From: a virus | Lineage: Duplodnaviria > Caudoviricetes | Virus record (IMG/VR): IMGVR_UViG_3300035498_000745 | Span: 25,799 to 89,798 of that record | Direction: 5' to 3' (one strand) | Length of the DNA: 64,000 bases | In this document: positions 2,583 through 27,236 of the stretch, in pieces | Layout of the letters: every line of letters begins with the position of its first letter | Numbering within the stretch: the stretch's first letter is position 1 | Notes under the pieces: generated by a model | Databases searched by the model: none | Seen by the model: only the letters and a program-made list of their open reading frames with translations | Told to the model about the DNA's origin: nothing | Translations under genes and position numbers: made by a program

Positions 2583-4103
2583 TCATTTTTTAAACACTGG
2601 CATACACATTACTTTCTTAACTTTGTACTTATCCCTTATAACAGCAGCTCTTTCTTGTATATCTATATCTGGCATTGCTACATCTCTACATGATTTAGCA
2701 TATGTAGAGAATACAGGTTTCTTAGCAGAATAGTATCTTTTAGTAAAATAGAATCCTTGATCTACTAAATCAAAATAGAAAGTATCATTAGCTCTACATC
2801 TACCAAGAGTTTGTCTTGCTAATACAGAAGACTTAAATGGTTCAGCTAAATTTATAGTACAACACAAGTCTGCTATATCTTGAGCAGCACCGCAAGATTT
2901 AGTTGTAGATAATATGATCTTCTTATACAAATTTAACTCTTTAGTTTCTTTTTCAGATAAACTAGTATACACCCCCACGCTATTAACTAAAAATGGGAAA
3001 TCTTGAATTATGTGATCTCTAACTCTCATAATGCCTGCGTTGGTGCCTATATAAATAAGAATCTTGCCATTCATCGGTAAAACCATTTCTATTAATATAG
3101 TTACCATATCTAAAAACATAGGTCTATTTACTATATAATCAACATATCTATTTCTATCAAATCCATAAGCATTCTTACATTTATTTATATCCATAGGTGA
3201 TGGGTGTGAATTAAAATGGAAAGCTACATAATTAACATGTGGATCAGTATCTTCATTAAATAAGACTATAGATGGAATATTTTTAAAATATAATTGATAG
3301 ATACTATTCTCATCTTCATTAGATCTTTCTGGTGTAGCGGTAAGATATATAGTCTTCTTTGTATTTGAATGGTAATCAATTTTTGACATGTTATCGAAAT
3401 ACAAATGAGCCTCATCAAATACTTTTAATGAGCATTTTAAATACTTAAAAAACTCATCTACTTTATCCCATCCATTCTTATCTCCATAAGATTTTATAGT
3501 AGAATGAGAAACTAAGAATATTTGATAATCTAATGGATTTCTACATTGTAATTTGGATATAGATCCTGCTCCAGAAACAGTAAATATCTGATTATCATTC
3601 AATGGAGTATACTCTAATATTCTAGCTCTCCATTGATCTAACCAATTTAATGAGCTAGTAATAATTATAGCTCTAGCTCCAGTAAAACATATTGCTCCTA
3701 CAGTGACAAATGTTTTACCAGATCCAGTTGATGAATTTACTGACAATTGGGATTTAGTTCTTGTATATATATATTTACCATCACCAATTAAGAACTTTAA
3801 TATCTCTACTTGTCTATCATCTTTAGTAAGATACTTTATAGGTATAGGTTCAGTATCCACATATGGATCACATTGTTTATCAACAATAGCATTGCAGCAA
3901 AACATATTCTCCAAATAACCAATATCTAATCCTCTTGGAACTATAAGTTTTCTTTTTTCATCATCATATTCAATAAATCGTATAAATGATGTATGTCTTA
4001 ATTTATCATATACTGAAAAACAATATTCTAACCTTGGGCAATCTCCCATGTCATAATTATTTATTTCTATTCTAGAATGTTTTAATACTACTTTATTTTG
4101 CAT
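2583..4103 (-). CDS. Superfamily 2 DExH helicase (UvsW / phiKZ gp75-like)
   Basis: Walker A STGSGKT, DEAH, motif III TATP, motif VI QTLGRCR; lies next to an RNAP beta' C-terminal subunit as in phiKZ-like phages. Confidence 0.9.
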   Translation of the reverse strand: MQNKVVLKHSRIEINNYDMGDCPRLEYCFSVYDKLRHTSFIRFIEYDDEKRKLIVPRGLDIGYLENMFCCNAIVDKQCDPYVDTEPIPIKYLTKDDRQVEILKFLIGDGKYIYTRTKSQLSVNSSTGSGKTFVTVGAICFTGARAIIITSSLNWLDQWRARILEYTPLNDNQIFTVSGAGSISKLQCRNPLDYQIFLVSHSTIKSYGDKNGWDKVDEFFKYLKCSLKVFDEAHLYFDNMSKIDYHSNTKKTIYLTATPERSNEDENSIYQLYFKNIPSIVLFNEDTDPHVNYVAFHFNSHPSPMDINKCKNAYGFDRNRYVDYIVNRPMFLDMVTILIEMVLPMNGKILIYIGTNAGIMRVRDHIIQDFPFLVNSVGVYTSLSEKETKELNLYKKIILSTTKSCGAAQDIADLCCTINLAEPFKSSVLARQTLGRCRANDTFYFDLVDQGFYFTKRYYSAKKPVFSTYAKSCRDVAMPDIDIQERAAVIRDKYKVKKVMCMPVFKK

Positions 4104-4204: not shown

Positions 4205-6394
4205 TTATTTTGCCTCGTTTTTATCTACAATTTTAACCATATCAATGGTTTTAGCGTAATCTCTAATATTAACATCTTCTTCATCTACTAAAATATCTTC
4301 CTGCATATATACCTGTGGCTGTTCATGGAAGAATAGATCGAAGAATGATGGTGCGTTCTTAGTAAATGTTAATGGGTTATACAATACTTTATTGAGATCT
4401 TTATAAAGTAATGATACAATAACGCTAGGATTATTTGTAAGTGCTTGATTAAGTGTAAGAATCCTATACTGAGCATTAGGATCATTCCAATTTGGTTTCC
4501 TCAAAATGTCATCTTTGCTAACAATTTGATTAGCCAAAATAACCTCAAGATGAATAGCATCAACATCAAGATTTCCTTCAATTACTAAATCGACTATAGA
4601 CTGTAATGCTTCATCTTTAGTCATATTCCCAGTAATATCAGATTTGTTAAGTATATTGATAATACCATCCATTGTCTTGGAGATCTCACTGTTATTGATT
4701 TTGATATAAAATAATGGTTCATCCTGTAAAGAATCTAAAGGAATATTTACTTTATTATCATCATTCTTAGCTTTTCTTCTAATAATAGAATTAAGCTCGT
4801 TAGAGATATATAAAGACTCATCAGATTCAGAACCAAATTTTACCATATTACCATTAGGATATTTGATATAGAAATGAGTTATATACTCATTATAAGTAAT
4901 ACTGTCTTCAGCATCAATCTTATTTCCGTCATCATCATACTTAACAGTATCTTCTTCATCATTAACTAAGTTTACATCATCTGGATCTATAATCATTGTA
5001 TATTTTCTAAGATCTGGAATACTGTCTTCTAAGTCGCTTATAAGACTAATACTATTTATATCAATCTCAAATAACTGGTCGAATTCTTTATTCCACTTAG
5101 TAACAATAATTTTAGTTTCCAAAAGATGCTTAGCTGATAACAAAGTTTGTGTAAGCATTGATGATAAGATCTCAGCTGCAATCTTGCCGACATTGATGTC
5201 TCTATTAGTCCAATATAGATCACCATAACATTTTCTACAAATACCATGACCAGAAGATAAACTGGCACATGTCATTGGAGAGTGTAAGAAGATAGTCTTC
5301 CCTATGAGAGAAGTATCTTTATCATCTAAGATATGATCCATTCCAAAAGGATTATATCTGAAATTACGATTCTTAACCATGCTAAGATGTTTAGCCGTCT
5401 TTATCTCAAATCTGATAAAGTGTCTAGACATACACTGATATGTTTCTATTGGATTAAGTATGGTGTCTGTATTATTTAATCCAAGTAATCTAGCAATGTC
5501 TCCAGAGTTTCCTACATTGATTTTCGATAACTTCTGAGCAGTTCTTGCAGTTGATGATTCAATATAGAAAGCTACAGGTTCATTAACACCTCCATTGCTA
5601 AATGATTTATTTATAATATATGGGTATACAGTATCATATACTGATTTGGTTCCAATATTAATTCTAGACTCTTTATACTGTCTAGGATTGATTGCCTCGG
5701 ATGCTCTGAATGAATTCGTTAACCCATGCTCATAGCCAATATACTTTTTAGAATTCTTTATGATTTCAATAGTTCTATCTGCTATAGCCTGACCAGCATC
5801 CTTAACATCATTGATAGGTACATTTGCAAATGATGTATGCATAAGATCATAATACTCAGGACATGCTTCCATGAGAGCAATATCATCTTCATTATTAATA
5901 GTATTTGCTAAATAATATGCAAACGGCTCTATCTGTGAGAAGTTCCAAGTTCCATCAGCAATAATATTATTAAGTTCATAATTGCCGATACTAATCTTGT
6001 TATCTATTGTAAGCACATAATCATCTATAAACTGTTTGATATTTTTGCGCTTTAATTCAGGAGACCAAAATATATTACGTGGACTGATCTTGCCATTGGT
6101 TTTTAAGATCATACTCCACATGAATAAACAATACCAATAATCTATGAATGATAATTCGCACCAAACATCTCCTCCCCAAGATATAGTAATCTTGGTATCA
6201 TGTACATAGTCTGTTTCGATACCATCTTTTAATATATTGCTTATACCAATAATATGGTCATCAATATTAGATGCAGTAATATCATTTGGCACCATAATTG
6301 CAATGGCGCTATATTTACTTACAGCATCTCCGTAAATAAAATAGTTCTTATAATTTTGTAGTGGCTTATACTCCACTATATTAGTTTCTGCCAT
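4205..6394 (-). CDS. Multisubunit phage RNA polymerase beta' C-terminal subunit (non-virion type)
   Basis: Bridge-helix-like NVGNSGDIARLL, Zn-binding SPMTC...GICRKCYG, trigger-loop-like TQTLLSAKH, and HLEVIL. Confidence 0.85.
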   Translation of the reverse strand: MAETNIVEYKPLQNYKNYFIYGDAVSKYSAIAIMVPNDITASNIDDHIIGISNILKDGIETDYVHDTKITISWGGDVWCELSFIDYWYCLFMWSMILKTNGKISPRNIFWSPELKRKNIKQFIDDYVLTIDNKISIGNYELNNIIADGTWNFSQIEPFAYYLANTINNEDDIALMEACPEYYDLMHTSFANVPINDVKDAGQAIADRTIEIIKNSKKYIGYEHGLTNSFRASEAINPRQYKESRINIGTKSVYDTVYPYIINKSFSNGGVNEPVAFYIESSTARTAQKLSKINVGNSGDIARLLGLNNTDTILNPIETYQCMSRHFIRFEIKTAKHLSMVKNRNFRYNPFGMDHILDDKDTSLIGKTIFLHSPMTCASLSSGHGICRKCYGDLYWTNRDINVGKIAAEILSSMLTQTLLSAKHLLETKIIVTKWNKEFDQLFEIDINSISLISDLEDSIPDLRKYTMIIDPDDVNLVNDEEDTVKYDDDGNKIDAEDSITYNEYITHFYIKYPNGNMVKFGSESDESLYISNELNSIIRRKAKNDDNKVNIPLDSLQDEPLFYIKINNSEISKTMDGIINILNKSDITGNMTKDEALQSIVDLVIEGNLDVDAIHLEVILANQIVSKDDILRKPNWNDPNAQYRILTLNQALTNNPSVIVSLLYKDLNKVLYNPLTFTKNAPSFFDLFFHEQPQVYMQEDILVDEEDVNIRDYAKTIDMVKIVDKNEAK

Positions 6395-6439
6395 ATTAAA
6401 TCACTCCTTTACATATACTTTACTTACTTCTTCCATATA

Positions 6440-6447
6440 ATAATATA
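6440..6447 (-). promoter_or_regulatory. TATATTAT early-type promoter motif (copies at 9312+, 41264-, 45847-, 51998-, 58744-)
   Basis: The same octamer recurs just upstream of RNAP, DNA polymerase and gyrA starts; resembles the AT-rich early promoters of phiKZ/AR9 virion RNAP. Confidence 0.6.
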
Positions 6448-6518
6448 CAACAGAAATCAAATTTTGTCAGTATATATTATATTAAATTGTTTCAGCACAT
6501 ATAAAAACGAAAAGATTT

Positions 6519-6541
6519 CCCGGTAGCATCTAGCTACCGGG
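6519..6541 (-). terminator. Intrinsic terminator ending the large ncRNA unit
   Basis: CCCGGTAGC-loop-GCTACCGGG, followed by a T-rich tail on the minus strand. Confidence 0.7.
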
Positions 6542-7520
6542 GTCAAGGAGATTTTTGGTAACAAAACTACTTATTAAATAAGTTGGGGAAATTTGTTAAA
6601 CAAAAATAAAGAAAAACAAATTCTACTAGTTTACATCTGATCATTTTTGATGACAGCAACTTAACTTGTAGATATAATGTAGCCTCCTGCCTGCTACTTA
6701 CCGGTAGCTATACTAACACCTCTTGAGATTCATTACTGACTACTGGGTCTATGACCTATCTCAATTAGCTACCCCATAATCGGTATCGTTATCCGATCAA
6801 CGTCAATCCTTAATTAATTCGCTTGCTGTACGAAACTACTCGTCAGGAACATAGAAAAATTCTATGCTATTCCATTGATCATCCTAACTGTAGGCTGGAT
6901 TCTCACCAGCAGCAGAAATGAAAACGGTATATTGTAAAGGCACGAAGTAAATATACCAAATCGTTACTACATTCACGTTCGGGGTTGGGGTTATGACCGC
7001 AAATGCAGTAACGAAGTACTTGTAAACGCTGTAACACATCTACAAGTAAAGCAATAGCAAAAAGGTAATCGTTACTACATTCACACTCGGGTTGGGGGTT
7101 GAGCATAAATGCAGTAACGAAATACTTGTAAACGCTATGACACGCCTACAAGTAAAAACTAGAATATTATCGCGATTTATCTAGATAGCTATGCGTTGCT
7201 ACATCTCAGTTTTTAAATCCATAAACTTTAACCGGTTCACAATCTACAAACCATAGATAACAGGAGAAGCAAGCCATCAAAGAACACCCATTATCCATAT
7301 TTTATGGATCATATTCTGAACGCCAGTCTTCTCGTAACTGACAACGCCTGTTCGATATATCAACAAGAAACTTCACCCTTAATTTACGCCGGTTACTGCA
7401 CAGGTTGTTATTCCTTTTTATATTCCCTACATATGTAGGGATGAATCAATGAAAAAAGAGAGACTGCTCGCCCGCCCGCATGTCCGACATCACACATATA
7501 GTTTTGGGTTTCTATATGCG
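6542..7520 (-). ncRNA. Candidate large structured non-coding RNA, class unassigned
   Basis: About 1 kb with no credible ORF, visibly GC-richer than the flanks, many hairpins whose mismatches become G-U pairs on the minus strand, own promoter-like motif (7619..7630) and terminator. Confidence 0.7.
6959..7156 (-). repeat. Tandem duplication (~90 nt x2) of a two-hairpin module with C-rich loops
   Basis: Copies at 6959..7050 and 7067..7156; stems TCGTTACTGCATT/AATGTAGTAACGA and TACTTGTA/TACAAGTA; most differences between copies preserve pairing. Confidence 0.9.
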
Positions 7521-7522
7521 GA

Positions 7523-7592
7523 ATACTTAATTAGGATTCGAACCTAGAAACTAATATTTATTATTCCATGCATCCTTTAGCATGATTAAGTA
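7523..7592 (-). ncRNA. tRNA-like element (degenerate cloverleaf)
   Basis: 7-bp acceptor-like stem TACTTAA/TTAAGTA, D-like arm CATGC-TAAAGGAT-GCATG, canonical T-arm TAGG-TTCGAAT-CCTA; anticodon arm short and AU-only; no encoded CCA. Confidence 0.6.
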
Positions 7593-7618
7593 ATTTTAAT
7601 TAGAATAATTATTTCCAC

Positions 7619-7630
7619 TACATACTTGTT
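7619..7630 (-). promoter_or_regulatory. AACA-N6-TA late-type promoter motif driving the ncRNA unit
   Basis: AACA-agtatg-TA; exact matches also at 8602-, 9249-, 21842+, 27259-, 30556+, 33593-; matches the AR9 non-virion RNAP promoter consensus. Confidence 0.65.
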
Positions 7631-7732
7631 ATAGTAGTGGTAAAAAAATATTACGGAGGATTTTACTCCTCCGTAAATACCTTAAAATAAAGTGGCTAGT
7701 TTATTTCTTGGCTTCATTGAGTTATTGTTGCC

Positions 7733-8551
7733 CTACTTAGATGTTAGTAATGATTTTATCTTTTTATAACTTGCATTACCATAAATTCCATCCTGAGTAA
7801 GACCATACTTTTTCTGGAATGCTTTTAATGCAGTCTCAGTCTTAGCTCCAAATGAACCATCCACACTAATACCAGAATTCATTACATAATTTAAATCATG
7901 CTGAAGTAATGTAACCTGTGCTCCACTAGAACCTTTCTTTAAAGTTGGTTTAGCTGCATCAGGAGCGATGCTCTTAGAAGAATTTGTTTTTGTATTTGAT
8001 TCTAAAGTAGATGAAGAATCATACTTTGGTCTACCATAGCCAGCAATTCTACTATAAGTAAGAAGATACTGTTTCTTTGCAACACAACCGCCATTTGCTA
8101 CAACTCCAGCACCAGAAGATGTATTACCTTCAATAGTATATATAGATATAGAATCAACTTTATATACTAATCCTGTATGACAAATCTTTCCTGAAGAATT
8201 CTTAAAGAATACCTGATCACCAATCTTTGGATTACTAGTATACCAAGCATTTTTCTTCTTATACATATCAGCAGACGCTATAGTATAATCATTAAAATCT
8301 CCAGCAAGAAGTTTCTTAGCATTAGTAATACCATATGCTTTATAAAAACACCAATCAACAAAACAATCACACCAGAATGCTGGGTAATCCATTACTGAAG
8401 GATAAATCTGATGCATCTCTTTTCCATATTTAGTATAATTCTTATCACCTGCATTGGCTGTCTTATCATATAGATCTTTGTCGCTTTCTTTTTCAAGATA
8501 ACCAACTTCTGCTTCAGCAATTTTTATAACTTTATTTACAGTATTAGCCAT
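7733..8551 (-). CDS. Endolysin: CHAP-type amidase/peptidase plus C-terminal PG_binding_1 domain
   Basis: WCDCFVDW, HTGLV and TIEGNT motifs; C-terminal LKKGSSGAQVTLLQ...DGSFG...FQKKYGLTQDGIYG. Confidence 0.9.
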   Translation of the reverse strand: MANTVNKVIKIAEAEVGYLEKESDKDLYDKTANAGDKNYTKYGKEMHQIYPSVMDYPAFWCDCFVDWCFYKAYGITNAKKLLAGDFNDYTIASADMYKKKNAWYTSNPKIGDQVFFKNSSGKICHTGLVYKVDSISIYTIEGNTSSGAGVVANGGCVAKKQYLLTYSRIAGYGRPKYDSSSTLESNTKTNSSKSIAPDAAKPTLKKGSSGAQVTLLQHDLNYVMNSGISVDGSFGAKTETALKAFQKKYGLTQDGIYGNASYKKIKSLLTSK

Positions 8552-8694: not shown

Positions 8695-9198
8695 TTACAT
8701 CTTAATCATTGGAAGTGCAGGCATCTTACGCATTGCTTTAATGTGCTGCTTCTGGCTTCTCTTTGCTACAAGACCAGCCTTATTACCATACTTCTTAAAG
8801 ATTGCATTACGAAGCTTACGCTCCTTAACTCTATTAAGAGCTAACTGATGGAATAATGGATCATTCTTTTCCTTAGCAATTACGATAGATGCTAAGTGAG
8901 CTCTACGTGTCAAATCATCATCCTTATTAAGACGAACGTATGTCTTTTTACTCATCTTTCTAGCTTCATCTAATTTCTGTAACTGACCTGACTCCATGAA
9001 GTTATTTAATGCTTCCTCTCCGCCATCAAAGTATACCACAGATTCAAGAGCTGACTGCATCATAATATTCTCTACATCTGATGCGATAGCTTCGATACCT
9101 TCTGGGGTATCCGGATCTTTATTAAGTACTTTATCTAATTCATCTGAAACTGGGTTGGACATGCCAGCACCACACTCATCTTCTTTTAAAAAAATCAT
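8695..9198 (-). CDS. Putative internal head protein (acidic N-terminus, basic C-terminus)
   Basis: 167 aa, RBS and late promoter motif; several hydrophobic-x-E sites (ALES, FMES, LDEA) precede a K/R-rich domain. Confidence 0.6.
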   Translation of the reverse strand: MIFLKEDECGAGMSNPVSDELDKVLNKDPDTPEGIEAIASDVENIMMQSALESVVYFDGGEEALNNFMESGQLQKLDEARKMSKKTYVRLNKDDDLTRRAHLASIVIAKEKNDPLFHQLALNRVKERKLRNAIFKKYGNKAGLVAKRSQKQHIKAMRKMPALPMIKM

Positions 9199-9349: not shown

Positions 9350-12300
9350 ATGGAAATACAAACAGATAGTATTAACCTAAAACCAATCCAGGAGTATCGT
9401 CAAATAATGATTGATGGTTTAAGACATTCATTTCCGGGATTGAATGTGGAAGAATTATCTAAAGCAATTGATTGGTCTATTAGTAATAGATTATATAATG
9501 GGCCAGCAGTCTTAGATAATAATTACACTAAGCAAAAAGCAAATGGAACGGTTCTAGATATATTACGTTATATAGAAAGACTAGAACCAATAAAGACATC
9601 TAGTGGGGTATTATTTAAACAAAGCAAAGAAGCAGATAATCCATTTGATAGAATGATAGCTGGATTTCTAGAGAAGCGAGGTCAATATAAGGATAAAATG
9701 TTTAAATACCCCAAAGGTAGTTATGAATTCGCTAAGTATAATCTATTTCAAATACTTGAGAAAAAGAATGCTAATGCTTGTTATGGATGCTTAGGAGCTC
9801 CATCATCAATGTATTATAATATATACGTAGCGGAAGCAGTAACAAGACAGGGAAGATCATATATATCTTGTAGTATTACTCTATTTGAATCATTGCTTGC
9901 TAATAATGTGAAGTTTAATAACTTAGATGAAATTATCACATTCATTAATAATGTGGAGCATGAGAAACCAAATAGAAAGTGTTTAGATAGTGCTATACTT
10001 GATATGGATATTACTGTAAATGAATGTTTCTATAAAGTAATGACTACTGTAGATCCTACAATATGGATTCCTACAGAAAAAGAGATGAGTCTTGTATATG
10101 AATATATTAGAGGATTATCTCAAGAAGATATAAACAGAGTATATTATAAGAATAACTTATATACGTTCTGTGATCTACCAATTGTTTCAGATCTTATCAT
10201 TAAGATTCTATCTAAACTTGGAGGACCAACTCAGTTTGAATCTGATGACCCTAATAGTAAGATAGTAAATAACTTATTCATGAATCCTAATAAACCACCA
10301 AAAGCAATTAAGGAAGATCTTGATATATTCGTAGATATGATTAAGGAGTATGTATATTATCCACACTTTTATATAGACAAATTAGATCGTATAGAATATA
10401 TGCAAAGAGATGTAGTTTGTCTTACTGATACAGACTCAACAATAGTATCATTTGATGCTTGGTATAGATTTATACTTGAAAAGGTATATAATTTAGATAT
10501 GCCTATAAAGCATGAAAAATTTGATATGGTGGAAATTATAAAAGCTGATGAATTTGGAGATCTTGATAAGAAGGTTATGTGTAAAATTGTAGATCCTAGG
10601 TTTGATTATGATTTCTATACAGATGAAGAAATAGAAACTCGAAGATATATAGAGCCTGCAAAAGTTGTGCCACAGGATATGCTTAAGTTTGGTATTATAA
10701 ATATAATAGCATATGCATGTAGCGCATTAGTAGTAGATTATCTTAGTGAGTATTCTAAACTTTCTGGTACTTATGTTGAAGGTAGGAAGTGCGCACTTGT
10801 GATAAATCTTTGTCACCTTATAGCAGTAATGCTGTGAGTAAAACTTTGTGAAATGCTGGAAAGTGCTAAAGCTCGAATGCCTATATGGAATCGAAAGATA
10901 GAAATAAGTTTCGAGATGGACTATGGTGAAATAAAAGCTTTGTATATTTTGAAGTAGGATATACAAGGTCCTAAGGTCTATTAACAATGTACGATCAGCA
11001 GATTGGATTGGATTGATTAAATAAATTAATAAAGGTGGTGATATTTTGCCAAAAAAGAAAAGAAAGCCTAGAACAACGCCTAGAATAGAACTAGATTTTA
11101 ATAAAGTATACTCTTCAAAAAGGGATGGAGACTATATACTTTTAGAAGAGGTCAAAATAGAAAATGATAGTAATAGGCATATATTAATAAAATTTCTGGA
11201 TACAGGCAATGAACAATTAGTACACCCATCAGAAATATACCATTGTATGATAAGGGATAGAAAGAAACATGGTATAGATTATGATAAAGTTTATAGTAGT
11301 AATAACTTTGGAGATTTTGTCATTATTAAAGACGCTGGAAGTAGAAAACAAGGGAATCATTCCCATAAATTAGTTAAAATAAAATTTCTTGACACCGGAA
11401 GTGTAAAAGTTGTAAGATTAGCTGATGCTTTGGTTGGTAATATAAGAGATGATTATAGACCAAATGTAGCCGGAGTAGGTTGTATAGGAAATGCTTCTAG
11501 TTATCATCCAGCATATAATGTATGGAATAGCATGTTGCAGAGATGTTATTGTAAAACTGATGCTAATTATGTAAGATATGGTGCTAAGGGAATTACAGTA
11601 TGCGAAAGATGGCATTGTTTTGAATATTTCTTAGAAGATTTACCATACATTGATGGTTATAATAATTGGTTAAATAATCCTGAATTATACCAATTAGATA
11701 AGGATTACAAACAACAAGGAATTCCTTATAATAAAAAAATATATTCTTTAAAAACTTGCTGTTTTATTGAAGACTATAATAATGTAGCATTAGCGACAAA
11801 ATCAAAAAATAAATATATTGGTGTTACTAAATTAATAAATGGGTATAATTCCAATATTACAGTTTGTGGAATAAATTATAATTTAGGTAGCTTCATTAAT
11901 AAAGATGATGCAGCAGCTGCATATAATAATGCAGCAAATTACTTACGTAATAATAATTTAGTATTAAATGATGTACCATACGTTGATCCAGAAATTTTAG
12001 ATACAAGAAAAATACGACACATAAATATGTGCAGAATAGTATAATAAACCCAAATAATCAATCCAATTTAATCCCAACGACTATCCCCATATGGGCTGTG
12101 AAATTCAGCAACAGGAGTAGGGCCTATGAAATTTATAGGTTGGTGAAAATCCATTAAATCCAAGCGCAAAGCATCCTAATAGGTAAAGCTAAGGATGAAG
12201 ATATAGTCTACGCTCTTAGAGAAATACTAAGGTAAATTCCTCAGCCTACACAAACTGTAAGCTGACGAATGTTCAGGGAAGAATGAATACTACTTCAGTA

Positions 12301-12995
12301 GAGCATTATTAACTTCACATAGAAGAAATTATGCCAGTTATCAAATTCTACAAGAAGGAAACATTATACCAGAAAGTGAAAGATTATCTATAGCAGGTTT
12401 ACCAATAGATAAATCTACATTACCAATAGATATTAAGGATGAGTTTAAAAGAATTATTTGTGAAGATATTATGAAGGCTGATAATATGGATCAGATAGGG
12501 ATAATGAAAAAACTTATACTTATGGAAAACAAAATCTATAAGAGTATTATGAATAAGGAAACTAAATATTATAAACCTGATAATGTAGCTCCAATTAATT
12601 CATATGCTAAAAATCCATTAGAGGTGAATGGCGTAGTAGCATGTCTTATTTATAATGAAATGAAAGATGATGATATGCAAGCTATAAATCTTGAAGAGAG
12701 AAATGCTATTATTAAAATCAAAATTGACGTTGATAAGAAAAACGTTGATAAAATTAAAGATTTATATCCTGATAAATATACTAAACTTGTTAATCTTCTT
12801 AATCATCCAACACTTGGATCTAAGGTTAATATAATAGCATTACCATTAGATACAGCTGTACCAGATTGGGTATTAGAGTTTGTAAATTTTGGAGAAATTA
12901 TTAGTGATTCTTTAAAGAATTTCCCTCTTGGATCTATTGGATTAAATCGTTTAGATAACGATAGCGTAAATGTATCAAATATTATTCAGTTATAA
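9350..12995 (+). CDS. Family B DNA polymerase, catalytic half; join(9350..10803,12278..12995), ~723 aa
   Basis: Motif B KKNANACYG and motif C DTDS; splicing joins AT|G to give ...ALV-M-KNEYYF...RRNYA, in frame with ORF 12471..12995. Confidence 0.9.
10804..12277 (+). mobile_element. Group I intron (1474 nt) in DNA polymerase, carrying a homing endonuclease
   Basis: P1 GTGAT|...GTCAC with U-G at the splice site; core elements AATGCTGGAAA, ATCAGCAG, CAACGACTA, AAGATATAGTCT; terminal G at 12277. Confidence 0.92.
11046..12044 (+). CDS. Intron-encoded homing endonuclease (HNH-like nuclease domain plus C-terminal AP2-like domain)
   Basis: Two N-terminal YSSxxxGD repeats; WNSMLQRCY...YGAKGITVCERW...LDKD...YSLKTC; AP2-like YIGV...YNLGSF...AAAAYN; enclosed by an inverted repeat (ATTGGATTGATTA/TAATCAATCCAAT). 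Confidence 0.85.
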   Translation: MPKKKRKPRTTPRIELDFNKVYSSKRDGDYILLEEVKIENDSNRHILIKFLDTGNEQLVHPSEIYHCMIRDRKKHGIDYDKVYSSNNFGDFVIIKDAGSRKQGNHSHKLVKIKFLDTGSVKVVRLADALVGNIRDDYRPNVAGVGCIGNASSYHPAYNVWNSMLQRCYCKTDANYVRYGAKGITVCERWHCFEYFLEDLPYIDGYNNWLNNPELYQLDKDYKQQGIPYNKKIYSLKTCCFIEDYNNVALATKSKNKYIGVTKLINGYNSNITVCGINYNLGSFINKDDAAAAYNNAANYLRNNNLVLNDVPYVDPEILDTRKIRHINMCRIV

Positions 12996-24833: not shown

Positions 24834-27236
24834 TTAGCCTTCATCATTACCCTGTATAGATTCAGGATTACTAACTACATCATTTGTATATTCCTGTCTA
24901 GCCTCATTCTCAAGATTCTTAATAATATCCATTTTCAGATATGATCCTAAATGATATATCTTAAGCTTCTTGATAAATGATGCTTTTATGGCATCATTAG
25001 GCTCATCAGCCATAATAATATTTGCTACATTCTCACAATAATCATTAGTATTAACAATCAACTGGTTTGTATTGGTAACGTTAATGAATAATGGAGGAGG
25101 CAATACAACTTTAATCTGATCACTTGAAGAGAATTCCATATCATATATCTTAGTCAATAATGGTTGAATTGCAGTTTCAAATTTAGATTGACGACCATAT
25201 ACAAATCTTAAGAATTTTGAATTACTCATTGTAAGCTGCATTGCATACTCTGGAGATTGTCTATTCTGAATAATCTCAATTGGTACTCCGGTTACATTGA
25301 TAGCTGACTCTTCAAGAATATTAAGAAGTTCAGTTTTAATCTCTATCTGCTGACCCTGCATCACTTCAAATTCTATTGGAGATTGACCATCTGCTCCTCT
25401 AGGAATAATATAATCATTAAATCTTCCTGTAACGTTAAGTACTGAATTAATATTCTCTACCTGACGAATACCAAAGTTAGATTTCTTAATCTCATTAATA
25501 GTCTTAAGCAATGTCTTAGATATATTAGTATCAACAGATTGCCTTACATAATATACTCTCTTATCATTGCCTCTAGTCATAATAGCTAAACAGTTTGTAA
25601 TATAAATTGCTACCCACAATTTAGCAGGAATTAATGAAAGACTAAGATCTGAAATCCCTCTGCCAGTATCTTCATCAAGTTTGAAATAAATATGATGGAT
25701 ATCTTCTGGTGGGATATATGATACTCTAATACTATTATGCATTGCTGCTGCCTGATTAAAATCATCATTATATTTTAAGATATAATAGATCTCTTTCTTA
25801 AGATCTTGATTAGCATTAATAAACTGATGATCAATCTTATCAGCTAACTGAGTGGCAATACTTCTAAGAAGTTCTTCTCTTCTTTGCATTGTATCAAAAT
25901 TCTCATCTCTGTTAGTATTCATCAATCCAGTAATAGTATTAACCATTCCAGTAGTAGTATATCTTTCATCAAATATACCCTGATTATTATCAAATTCAAA
26001 ATAATAATAGCCTAAACAAATATCATTTAAAACTATAGGAGTTACTCTCTCGCGCTTTAATTTCTTAACTATACACCCGTTGATGTTGGCAATCTTCTTT
26101 TTTTGTTTCTGTGAATTTACAAGTCCATCAGCTGACGGATCAGAAGTGTTAGGGAGCTCCAAATTATCATCAAGTGTATGATCAAAATTATGATGCACTG
26201 GTAATCTACCATTATATTCAGCATCATGATCAATAGTATCATTAAACTTATATGGTCTTCCATCATTTCTAATATCTATAGTCTCAGCTTCAGATAATGG
26301 AATTCTTCCTTCATCCAATGCTGTTTCTGCAAAATATTGTTCTGTTAAAGATTCTTTAGCAACCTGAGTACGCTTTTCTCTAACCATCTTTTCAGTTTCT
26401 ACAATAGAAGATATAATTCCATTTTCAAATGTTACATCTAGATTATACCCATTATTACTAGACTCAGATAAATTATATCCATTTGGTAAATTGATTCTTT
26501 CTGTACCATTATCTGACTCCATAATTATACAGTTTTCTCTATAATTAGTATTAAAACTAACTCCCTGAGAAGAGTACTTAGTGTCCATAAGTTTCTGTAT
26601 AGCTTTGGTATATGGAACACAATATACAAAAACTTCACCATATTTTGAAGTCTCATAATATATATCATTAACGAATTCCAATAAATCATATCTCTCTTTA
26701 AGCTCATCCACATTACGAGAGAATTGTGCAGAATCTCTATCAGAGATACTGAATGATGATTCTATATTAAGATAATCTTTTGAGAAACTATCGGACGATA
26801 ATACATTATCTCTTATAGTTTGTAATGCTTCTTCAAGCTTAGGCATATACTTAAGCACTTCATCAATTTCTTGATCTATAGCTCTTACCCATCTATTATC
26901 CAGATAGGAATTAGCAATATTATTTACAAAATCATTATCTCCAAAGATTTTCTCAAACTCACTTACAGTTCCAGGATCATTCTGTGTTTTTAATAACAAT
27001 CTCTCATATAGTTTAGATATATTAGGCTCACCTATATTATCAGAATTAGTATCCATTATTGATTTAATAGAACTAGAAATATCTGACTTAAGTGATTGTA
27101 ATTGCTGTTTATTTGTAGGATCTGAATAGTATGTGGATCTATATAAGCTACTTATATTATCTTGAGATCTATTTGCAAGTCTATTGATTAAACCAAATTG
27201 AATTGGTTTTTTATCTTGCTTATTATTCTTAGCCAT
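24834..27236 (-). CDS. Portal protein
   Basis: 800 aa; KYGEVFVY, RGNDKRVYYV, DYIIPR and TGVP motifs resemble T4 gp20/phiKZ-type portals; late promoter motif at 27259..27270. Confidence 0.75.
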   Translation of the reverse strand: MAKNNKQDKKPIQFGLINRLANRSQDNISSLYRSTYYSDPTNKQQLQSLKSDISSSIKSIMDTNSDNIGEPNISKLYERLLLKTQNDPGTVSEFEKIFGDNDFVNNIANSYLDNRWVRAIDQEIDEVLKYMPKLEEALQTIRDNVLSSDSFSKDYLNIESSFSISDRDSAQFSRNVDELKERYDLLEFVNDIYYETSKYGEVFVYCVPYTKAIQKLMDTKYSSQGVSFNTNYRENCIIMESDNGTERINLPNGYNLSESSNNGYNLDVTFENGIISSIVETEKMVREKRTQVAKESLTEQYFAETALDEGRIPLSEAETIDIRNDGRPYKFNDTIDHDAEYNGRLPVHHNFDHTLDDNLELPNTSDPSADGLVNSQKQKKKIANINGCIVKKLKRERVTPIVLNDICLGYYYFEFDNNQGIFDERYTTTGMVNTITGLMNTNRDENFDTMQRREELLRSIATQLADKIDHQFINANQDLKKEIYYILKYNDDFNQAAAMHNSIRVSYIPPEDIHHIYFKLDEDTGRGISDLSLSLIPAKLWVAIYITNCLAIMTRGNDKRVYYVRQSVDTNISKTLLKTINEIKKSNFGIRQVENINSVLNVTGRFNDYIIPRGADGQSPIEFEVMQGQQIEIKTELLNILEESAINVTGVPIEIIQNRQSPEYAMQLTMSNSKFLRFVYGRQSKFETAIQPLLTKIYDMEFSSSDQIKVVLPPPLFINVTNTNQLIVNTNDYCENVANIIMADEPNDAIKASFIKKLKIYHLGSYLKMDIIKNLENEARQEYTNDVVSNPESIQGNDEG

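Follow-up and report, generated by a model that had tools for sequence, protein, structure and literature searches.

We analysed a 64,000-nucleotide stretch of viral DNA, hereafter the window, which corresponds to positions 25,799 to 89,798 of the IMG/VR record IMGVR_UViG_3300035498_000745. The record comprises 89,798 bases with a CheckV completeness estimate of 37%, and the source phage was found in animal gut samples. The subject of this study is an interval at 6519-7630, here called the RNA unit, which is placed between an endolysin gene and the gene for a β′ piece of a non-virion RNA polymerase (nvRNAP). An initial annotation, made from the letters of the DNA alone, had described the interval as a candidate large ornate non-coding RNA (ncRNA) without a credible open reading frame (ORF). 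Our results indicate that it is probably a stand-alone gene for a large structured ncRNA, read from the minus strand. It has no match in Rfam, and the interpretation is supported by a homologous unit with covarying helices in a sister phage and by the tRNA-Lys and tRNA-like element that flank the sister copy. The features of the locus are collected in Table 1.

Table 1. Features of the RNA unit and its neighbours (window positions).
Feature	Position	Strand	Basis and remarks
C-terminal half of nvRNAP β′ subunit	4205..6394	-	tblastn and AR9 synteny; downstream of the RNA unit
Intrinsic terminator of the RNA unit	6519..6541 (6541->6519)	-	9-bp stem with 7 G-C pairs, T-rich tail
A/U-rich 3′ tail, lineage-specific	6545..6703	-	last part homologous to the L013 stretch after the tRNA
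Conserved multi-helix 3′ core	6704..6887	-	blocks CAAUGGAAUAGCAUA, UUCUAUGUUCC, UAAGGAUUGrCGUUG, UAUGGGGU
Module copy B	6956..7050	-	13-bp hairpin 7017-7048, then 20-bp hairpin 6961-7014 with C-rich loop AUAACCCCAACCCC
Module copy A	7062..7156	-	13-bp hairpin 7123-7154, then 20-bp hairpin 7069-7120 with C-rich loop AACCCCCAACCC
Best-conserved block, 29-nt hairpin	7157..7185	-	CUAGA/UCUAG 5-bp stem, 16-nt loop; present in the minimum-energy fold
Poorly conserved 5′ domain	7266..7618	-	hairpins 7424-7441 and 7290-7312; scant conservation in L013 outside the T-arm block
tRNA-like element	7520..7567	-	GGAAUA/UAUUCC stem around the T-arm UAGG-UUCGAAU-CCUA
AR9-type late-promoter-like motif AACA-N6-TA	7619..7630 (7630->7619)	-	exact motif; putative start at the final A, ~7619
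Intrinsic terminator of the endolysin gene	7651..7676 (7676->7651)	-	10-bp stem, then T run; upstream boundary of the RNA unit
Endolysin gene	7733-8551	-	CHAP and PG_binding_1 domains; upstream of the RNA unit

The gap that holds the RNA unit (window 6395-7732) is 1338 nt long and was the longest ORF-free gap of the record, in which the next longest measured 668 nt and the coding share was 87.5%. The longest ORFs within it would encode 67, 51, and 44 aa, stop codons numbered 18-36 per frame in all six frames, and the readthrough of a single stop opened at most 157 codons. When compared by tblastx with the sister locus L013, which is described below, the RNA unit gave pieces of 15 aa or less spread over all frames, and the flanking gene gave a 156-aa match with an E-value of 5.5e-79. 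Small proteins or a recoded gene in the unit were ruled out by the readthrough count together with the tblastx comparison. The absence of a credible ORF was borne out, and so was the earlier remark that the interval is GC-richer than its flanks, with a G+C content of 0.37-0.39 in 300-nt windows over 6600-7499 compared with 0.26-0.34 in most flanking windows.

The folding energies were asymmetric between the strands. The whole unit folded at -325.1 kcal/mol on the minus strand compared with -264.4 kcal/mol on the plus strand. For the part at 6700-7265, the minus strand reached a z-score of -5.93, and none of 100 shuffled sequences was as stable, while the plus strand reached -1.63 with 7 of 100 shuffles as stable. 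Both measures agree with the initial reading that mismatches in the helices resolve as G-U pairs on the minus strand. The same annotation had described the interval as packed with hairpins, and all five hairpins that it named are present, although stability beyond chance was found solely in the central duplicated module at about 6956-7160. Similarly, the structured unit of about 1.1 kb is matched by the promoter-to-terminator span, but just ~560 nt of it (7260 to 6704) is conserved.

Within this conserved part, the loop of the 29-nt hairpin holds the self-complementary sequence UCGCGA (7175 to 7170). Where module copies A and B differ, most changes are compatible with G-U pairing on the minus strand. 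The 3′ core contains a small hairpin, UCA-GUAA-UGA, at 6728-6741 (block AGUCAGUAAUGA), with a 3-bp stem and a GNRA-type GUAA loop. On the plus strand, the complements of the two C-rich loops, at 6981-6992 and 7089-7100, read GGGGTTGGGGTT and GGGTTGGGGGTT, which we take to be G-tracts like those of ciliate telomeres with the potential to form G-quadruplexes in single-stranded DNA.

Among 52 related loci in viral contigs, L013 was the sole one with the same arrangement. L013 and L054 are contigs with 98.7% identity and represent one sister lineage. The β′ protein of L013 is 77% identical to that of the window, and a 1170-nt ORF-free gap lies directly upstream of its gene. Relatives with a β′ identity of 66% or less carry a single gene of ~165 aa (orf164) at this place, a homologue of the window ORF at 8695-9198, so that the endolysin gene and the ORF-free unit are extra in the window and L013. 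Because these relatives have only the ~165-aa gene between polB and the β′ gene, the endolysin gene and the RNA appear to have been inserted in the subclade of the window and L013.

The RNA unit and the L013 gap share collinear blocks, namely the promoter motif, TAGGTyCGAATCCTA, the 29-mer of the best-conserved hairpin (28 of 29 bases identical), GCGTGTCAyAGCG, CAATGGAATAGCATA, TTCTATGTTCC, TAAGGATTGrCGTTG, TATGGGGT, and AGTCAGTAATGAAT. The terminator and the stretch preceding it are homologous as well. The sequences between the blocks diverge, yet they form equivalent helices in the two phages. A block of ~50 nt at 6628-6676 (minus strand) lies downstream of the RNA core in the window, and its L013 counterpart at 3834-3885 comes before the RNA promoter, immediately behind the stop codon of the endolysin gene. 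That the block precedes the RNA cassette in one phage and follows it in the other suggests a rearrangement or mobility of the cassette.

The covariation of the helices was evaluated on two structures. For the 3′ core, window 6704-6887 was folded together with L013 and L054 by RNAalifold, which gave 54 pairs. Standard pairs filled 96.9% of the cells, compared with 36-48% when the partners were slid, and 13 pairs had changed on both sides, compared with 1-3 with slid partners. The module structure, with 22 pairs, was based on the two window copies, L013, and L054. Its pairs were kept in all four copies, with 98.9% of the cells paired (26-49% when slid) and 7 double-change pairs (0-1 when slid). 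Because the structure had been derived from the same sequences, a coding control was run, in which 40 segments of the β′ alignment, of 210 columns each and on both strands, were passed through the identical MAFFT and RNAalifold pipeline. The 3′ core had 15 compensatory pairs, while the controls had 2.6 on average and 7 at most. Overall, 13-15 of 51-54 core pairs had changed on both sides. Moreover, its consensus energy was -32.8, while the controls averaged -13.2 with a minimum of -21.7. Between L013 and L054, 4 of the 12 differences in the RNA unit fall in one core hairpin, and all four keep the pairing. Covariation among homologues, which the initial annotation had named as a check, was found in both core and module, though two lineages are too few for statistics of the R-scape type.

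Contigs matching window 5900-8100 were found in all four of four animal-gut metatranscriptome runs, in eight pieces with no differing letter. Seven of these lie in the RNA unit (6738-6994, 7146-7372, 6701-6982, 7171-7365, 6940-7085, 7170-7409, and 6774-6981), and the eighth lies in the β′ gene (5999-6149). The matches in the unit lie within 6701-7409 and include 6701-6994 and 7146-7409, so the 5′ domain is covered just to 7409, and the stretches without contig cover, 7410-8100 and most of 5900-6700, are uninterpretable. Because the contigs show no ends or expression levels, we make no claim that the RNA is more abundant than the neighbouring genes.

The motif at the head of the RNA unit was read with the help of a distant relative. 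The 729-aa ORF at 4205-6394 has over 1,000 relatives, located on contigs 200-300 kb long, and is 26-27% identical by tblastn to the annotated β′ genes of the Bacillus phages AR9 and PBS1, Staphylococcus jumbo phages, and others. Its AR9 counterpart is the C-terminal β′ piece of the nvRNAP. The gene order of AR9, with polB, a small virion protein (gp152), nvRNAP β′, and a helicase, is also the order of the window. Judging from this β′ similarity and the AR9-like gene order, the phage is a distant AR9/PBS1-like jumbo phage.

The late promoters of AR9 follow the consensus AACA-(6N)-TA/G, whose last base is the start site (PMC5312081). The motif at the head of the RNA unit is an exact match, and TATAACA-N6-TA occupies the corresponding position in L013. 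Intergenic DNA makes up 12.5% of the record and holds 26 of its 98 AACA-N6-TA copies, a share possibly inflated by the A/T-rich composition of the intergenic DNA. Many of the gene-proximal copies have the form AACA-N5-G-TAAA, and the copy of the RNA unit also has G-TA. By analogy with AR9, we infer that the phage RNA polymerase uses the motif and that the RNA unit would be expressed late. At the other end, L013 carries a homologous and covarying terminator hairpin at the same place. The terminator scan found 4 terminator-like sites compared with 0.7 expected, and the two terminators that bound the unit are both on the minus strand. The initial annotation had placed a motif at the start and a terminator at the end of 6519-7630, and this arrangement held as a promoter-to-terminator unit on the minus strand. 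The unit resembles the late units of AR9 in its exact motif, kept in L013, and in the shared polB-gp152-β′ synteny. On the other hand, AR9 has neither the endolysin gene nor the RNA at this locus and is only distantly related, with a β′ identity of 26%. A second AACA-N6-TA motif (GAAACAATTTAATATA) at 6480-6491 on the minus strand precedes the β′ start codon by 97 nt, and L013 has an identical copy. In AR9, the β′ gene is annotated with an early promoter instead.

Several observations link the RNA to tRNA genes. In L013, a tRNA-Lys(UUU) lies at 4745-4817, just ahead of the terminator, and a tRNA-like element at 3924-3994 scored 29.2 bits against the tRNA model cut-off of 29. These two are the only tRNA-model matches of the 238.8-kb L013 record. 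The T-arm block of the window, TAGGTyCGAATCCTA, is kept in L013. The window copy of the 5′ tRNA-like element was not detected as a tRNA by the Rfam scan or by ARAGORN, and ARAGORN found no tRNA or tmRNA gene in the window or in the whole record. In the tRNA/tmRNA clan CL00001, the best match in the window unit was mt-tmRNA, whose 18.1 bits fell short of the cut-off of 65. A tRNA-Lys remnant in the window tail was considered and rejected, as its alignment score of 24.5 compared with a shuffle mean of 28.8. Furthermore, 28 of the 29 bases of the 29-mer recur in an unrelated phage contig, L074 (IMGVR_UViG_3300021431_000113), where 5 nt separate them from a downstream tRNA. The island at 1-2417 of L074 holds a tmRNA (tag ANEYRMAA*) and at least 10 tRNAs, and the tRNA next to the 29-mer has the anticodon UUA, a possible UAA suppressor. 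The RNA unit resembles phage tRNA islands in the T-arm motif (UAGGUUCGAAUCCUA) inside a stem, the tRNA-Lys of the L013 unit, and the 29-mer in the L074 island. As for differences, the window lacks tRNAs altogether, and the conserved core of the RNA does not resemble one.

Spacers 400-800 nt long without an ORF were also observed in or beside the tRNA islands of relatives (L067 2891-3595, L068 4059-4803, L070 3497-4287, and L063 3416-3813). They had z-scores of -4.1 to -7.3 on the tRNA-sense strand with 25 shuffles each, and the tRNA-sense energy was the lower one in 4 of 4. No homology of these spacers to the window RNA or to one another, and no Rfam family, was found, and they may be further uncharacterised tRNA-linked RNAs. 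The conserved blocks, with up to two mismatches allowed, were not found in 9 tRNA-island spacers. In AR9, an unannotated 560-nt gap (L062 2410-2969; NC_031039.1 207909-208468) starts with AACA-N6-TA and lies ~1 kb upstream of the single tRNA gene of AR9 and 2-3 kb upstream of the holin gene. By R1, the model of the 3′ core described below, it is not homologous to the window RNA.

The initial annotation could not assign the RNA to a known class by eye, and neither could the covariance models. At gathering score, no Rfam family, including ROOL, GOLLD, tmRNA, and introns, matched in the 64-kb window; the unit is absent from Rfam 15, and none of its accessible homologues carries an annotation. A cmscan of 6300-7800 and 6690-7270 with 4227 families, E <= 10, and lax short-input filters gave only noise, of which the best match, STnc240 (25.4 bits against 55), falls on the endolysin terminator and was rejected. 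ROOL (RF03087) gave no match in the window at its gathering score of 99.1 bits, none at E <= 10 in the unit, and none at E <= 10 over the whole record, in a search made without a positive control. The GOLLD model gave none at E <= 10 for the window unit, and in L013 3700-5000 the Rfam scan gave tRNA matches only and no GOLLD. No group I or II intron family matched at E <= 10, and RF01998 (group-II-D1D4-1) matched nothing in the record. The reading as an intron was discarded on this lack of a model match and on the location of the unit between genes with its own terminator. Among the 15 best titles of the literature search, none dealt with such an RNA, but published catalogues of candidate RNAs were not compared by sequence, so a description outside Rfam is possible.

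In bioRxiv 10.1101/2024.12.08.627333, GOLLD and ROOL are described as RNAs of phages and prophages, often near tRNA islands, and both are held together by kissing loops. GOLLD is described there with a conserved 3′ region, a variable 5′ region, and an expression that rises at lysis. Measured against this account, the RNA unit resembles GOLLD in its phage location, its endolysin neighbour, the late-promoter motif, the 3′ tRNA-Lys of L013, and the conserved 3′ core with a variable 5′ part. It differs from GOLLD in having no Rfam match, a tandemly duplicated hairpin module, and a very narrow distribution. With ROOL, the unit shares the character of a large structured phage RNA tied to tRNA islands, and the loop-loop contacts of ROOL offer a parallel. 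The differences are that the ROOL model had no match at E <= 10 and that the 5′ part of this RNA is free to vary. The initial annotation had also noted that large ornate RNAs often stand beside tRNAs. Such a context was found in L013, where the tRNA-Lys and the tRNA-like element accompany the unit, but not in the window copy, which has no tRNA. The self-complementary UCGCGA loop is the one lead for an RNA-only homo-oligomeric cage of the GOLLD/ROOL type.

The distribution of the RNA was investigated with several searches. R1, a model of the 3′ core, recovered the window with 156 bits and the L013 record with an E-value of 2.3e-67 and found nothing in AR9 or in the L074 record. By blastn, there was no match in 50,697 phage records, and among the 52 related loci there was only one of 29 nt, in L013. 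Pattern scans of viral contigs found nothing beyond L013 and L054. A pattern scan of metagenomes gave two matches dismissed as chance, L056, which shares nothing else with the unit, and L057, which looks like a plant copia-type retrotransposon. Scans of genome contigs with the protein P0009 and with the RNA pattern found nothing, and the 17-mer AGTCAGTAATGAATYTC had three unrelated matches in or beside ORFs. A search for close relatives with the β′ protein alone also gave nothing. In the protein database, two more β′ lineages of the subclade, P0001 and P0007-9, were found, with a β′ identity of 75-84%. The initial annotation had allowed for a new class or a divergent member and had named homologues in related phage contigs as a check; a homologous unit exists, but it was found in two lineages only.

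The neighbouring genes showed further differences. The endolysin has 272 aa in the window (7733-8551) and 544 aa in L013 (2196-3830). They share 75% identity over the N-terminal 178 aa, and extra C-terminal repeats in the L013 protein match the cell-wall-binding end of the window endolysin. The gene of the family-B DNA polymerase is split in the window (9350-12995), since the 710-aa PolB of relatives aligns to 9368-10804 and 12279-12992. The insert of ~1.4 kb carries a 332-aa ORF (11046-12044) that has a weak, sub-threshold Tudor match alone. The L013 polB is apparently interrupted too. The insert may be an intron, an intein, or a homing-endonuclease insertion, and no intron model matched it at gathering score.

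A stand-alone ncRNA gene was weighed against four other explanations of the locus. In the main rival, the unit is what remains of a tRNA-island or mobile cassette that was once acquired and is now decaying. It would be functionless though still transcribed from a leftover promoter, and its hairpins would be relics of tRNA genes and their spacers. The history of the locus would suit such a remnant: a search of 20 related phage records did not find the unit, the place where endolysin and RNA seem to have been inserted holds only orf164 between polB and β′ in relatives, and the side of the RNA on which the flanking block stands differs between the two phages. The tRNA-Lys kept by L013 is lost in the window, where just the T-arm of the 5′ element is retained, the 29-mer is common to a foreign tRNA island, and the 5′ domain and 3′ core are thermodynamically ordinary. 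However, neutral decay would not give 13-15 compensatory double changes with 97-99% of the cells paired, nor the pair-preserving changes seen between the duplicated copies of the window and between L013 and L054. In addition, the promoter motif and the terminator are both conserved, and the core is not tRNA-like (no gene by ARAGORN; the best match in the tRNA clan was the 18.1 bits given above, against 65). We regard a remnant as unlikely. A base-pairing regulator acting in trans, or a protein sponge, is very unlikely in our view. In this model, G-rich RNA sites or a C-binding protein would be the partners of the repeated C-rich loops, and the remainder of the RNA would be a stabilising scaffold. 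C-rich loops serve as seed regions in Firmicute sRNAs such as RsaE/RoxS, and apical loops containing CCCC stand on long stems in both phages, with two copies in the window. But the loop sequences differ between the phages except for the C run, no target was identified, the length of ~1 kb far exceeds that of known base-pairing sRNAs, and the conserved 3′ core and the 29-mer would be left without a role.

The other two explanations appear weaker still. The phage setting, the tRNA or tRNA-like neighbours, the place beside a lysis gene, and the conserved 3′ and variable 5′ parts, which recall GOLLD and ROOL, could also be those of a very divergent member of one of these classes, outside the reach of the narrow Rfam models. 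We consider such membership highly improbable, as neither class appeared among the 4227 Rfam families at E <= 10 with lax filters, either in the window or in L013, and the ROOL model found nothing in the record at the same threshold, in the search without a positive control. As for a cis-acting DNA element, such as a replication origin, a packaging site, or a recombination or protein-binding region, the tandem 106-nt repeats, the many inverted repeats, the palindromes TCGCGA and TCCCTACATATGTAGGGA, the plus-strand G-tracts GGGGTTGGGGTT, and the evident rearrangement at the locus would all be compatible with it. A strand asymmetry that depends on G-U pairs is meaningless for double-stranded DNA, however, and the promoter and terminator punctuate one strand, the RNA libraries match exactly, and the unit is G+C-richer than its flanks, not A+T-rich. 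A DNA element is hardly credible on these grounds.

The preferred reading as an ncRNA gene has to be held against a number of points that weigh on the other side. Since only two lineages are known, the evidence is promising but thin. The two lineages are the only independent ones, so the covariation counts rest on one sequence pair, and they were made on the sequences from which the structures were derived. The coding controls are less diverged than the core (74% compared with 63% identity), and substitutions between L013 and L054 are as frequent in the RNA unit (12 in ~845 nt) as in the neighbouring gene (12 in ~904 nt). The stability is uneven. The 5′ part at 7266-7619 has a z-score of -0.67, with 24 of 100 shuffles as stable, and the 3′ core at 6704-6960 has -0.77, with 42 of 200. 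The excess is confined to the tandem duplication with its 106-108-nt spacing, and L013 4190-4744 reached only -2.22 in the sense compared with -1.79 in the antisense direction. The library data are assembled contigs without strand, ends, or level, and carry-over of DNA is possible. Across the window, TAACA-N6-TA occurs 19 times compared with 25.5 expected, so the motif is not enriched, and its promoter class is borrowed from AR9. Of the late unit proposed initially, the promoter motif stood, and the lateness comes solely through this motif from a phage whose β′ is 26% identical. Finally, R1 found nothing in 51 related loci, in 20 whole records of relatives (10 of them at least 90% complete), or in 10 tRNA-island loci of relatives. 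Because the model recovers L013 and finds nothing in these relatives, a function needed by the phage group in general is unlikely.

With these points taken into account, the ncRNA gene remains the reading that we favour, and the unit is probably a new class of large phage ncRNA, like GOLLD and ROOL in context and a member of neither. The primary transcript most likely starts at the motif at 7630-7619 and ends at the terminator at 6541-6519, with a length of ~1.08 kb. Its conserved part, from ~7260 to 6704, would consist of the hairpin with the UCGCGA loop, the tandemly duplicated two-hairpin module with C-rich loops, and the multi-helix 3′ core with the GNRA-type loop. The RNA probably belongs to phage tRNA islands or derives from them, because of the T-arm and tRNA-like element at its 5′ end, the 3′ tRNA-Lys(UUU) of the sister unit, and the 29-mer in the tRNA island of another phage. 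In late infection it would function as a folded RNA rather than as an mRNA or a DNA site. By analogy with GOLLD and ROOL, its role would most likely be that of a scaffold that self-associates through loop-loop contacts, with the palindromic loop pairing and the C-rich loops meeting a GGGG block, or of a scaffold that binds RNA-handling proteins of the host or phage. The reasons for favouring a scaffold are that apical or junction motifs (the GGGG block and the palindromic, C-rich, and GNRA loops) are the best-conserved elements and that the RNA has no evident antisense target.

A more specific reading is tentative and unlikely. In it, the RNA would be the first member of a new class of tRNA-island-derived ornate RNA that forms a higher-order RNA particle through the invariant UCGCGA loop and the contacts of the C-rich loops with GGGG, made late together with the lysis enzyme; or, together with the tRNA-Lys(UUU) of the sister, it would be a tRNA-mimicking decoy against host defence nucleases that cleave tRNAs. 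If a particle or decoy were true, the 400-800-nt spacers in the tRNA islands of relatives would be further fast-evolving members of the same functional kind.

Few classes of large ornate phage RNAs are known, and GOLLD and ROOL are among the least understood. The RNA described here would be another class, in AR9-like jumbo phages that have their own multisubunit RNA polymerases. The neighbouring lysis gene, the link to the only tRNA-model matches of the sister record, and the hairpin in a foreign island would tie such RNAs to tRNA islands and late infection. The core of ~560 nt is a compact target for structural work. Furthermore, should the tRNA-adjacent spacers of the relatives prove analogous, RNAs of this kind may be widespread in this group of phages and evolve too fast for homology searches.

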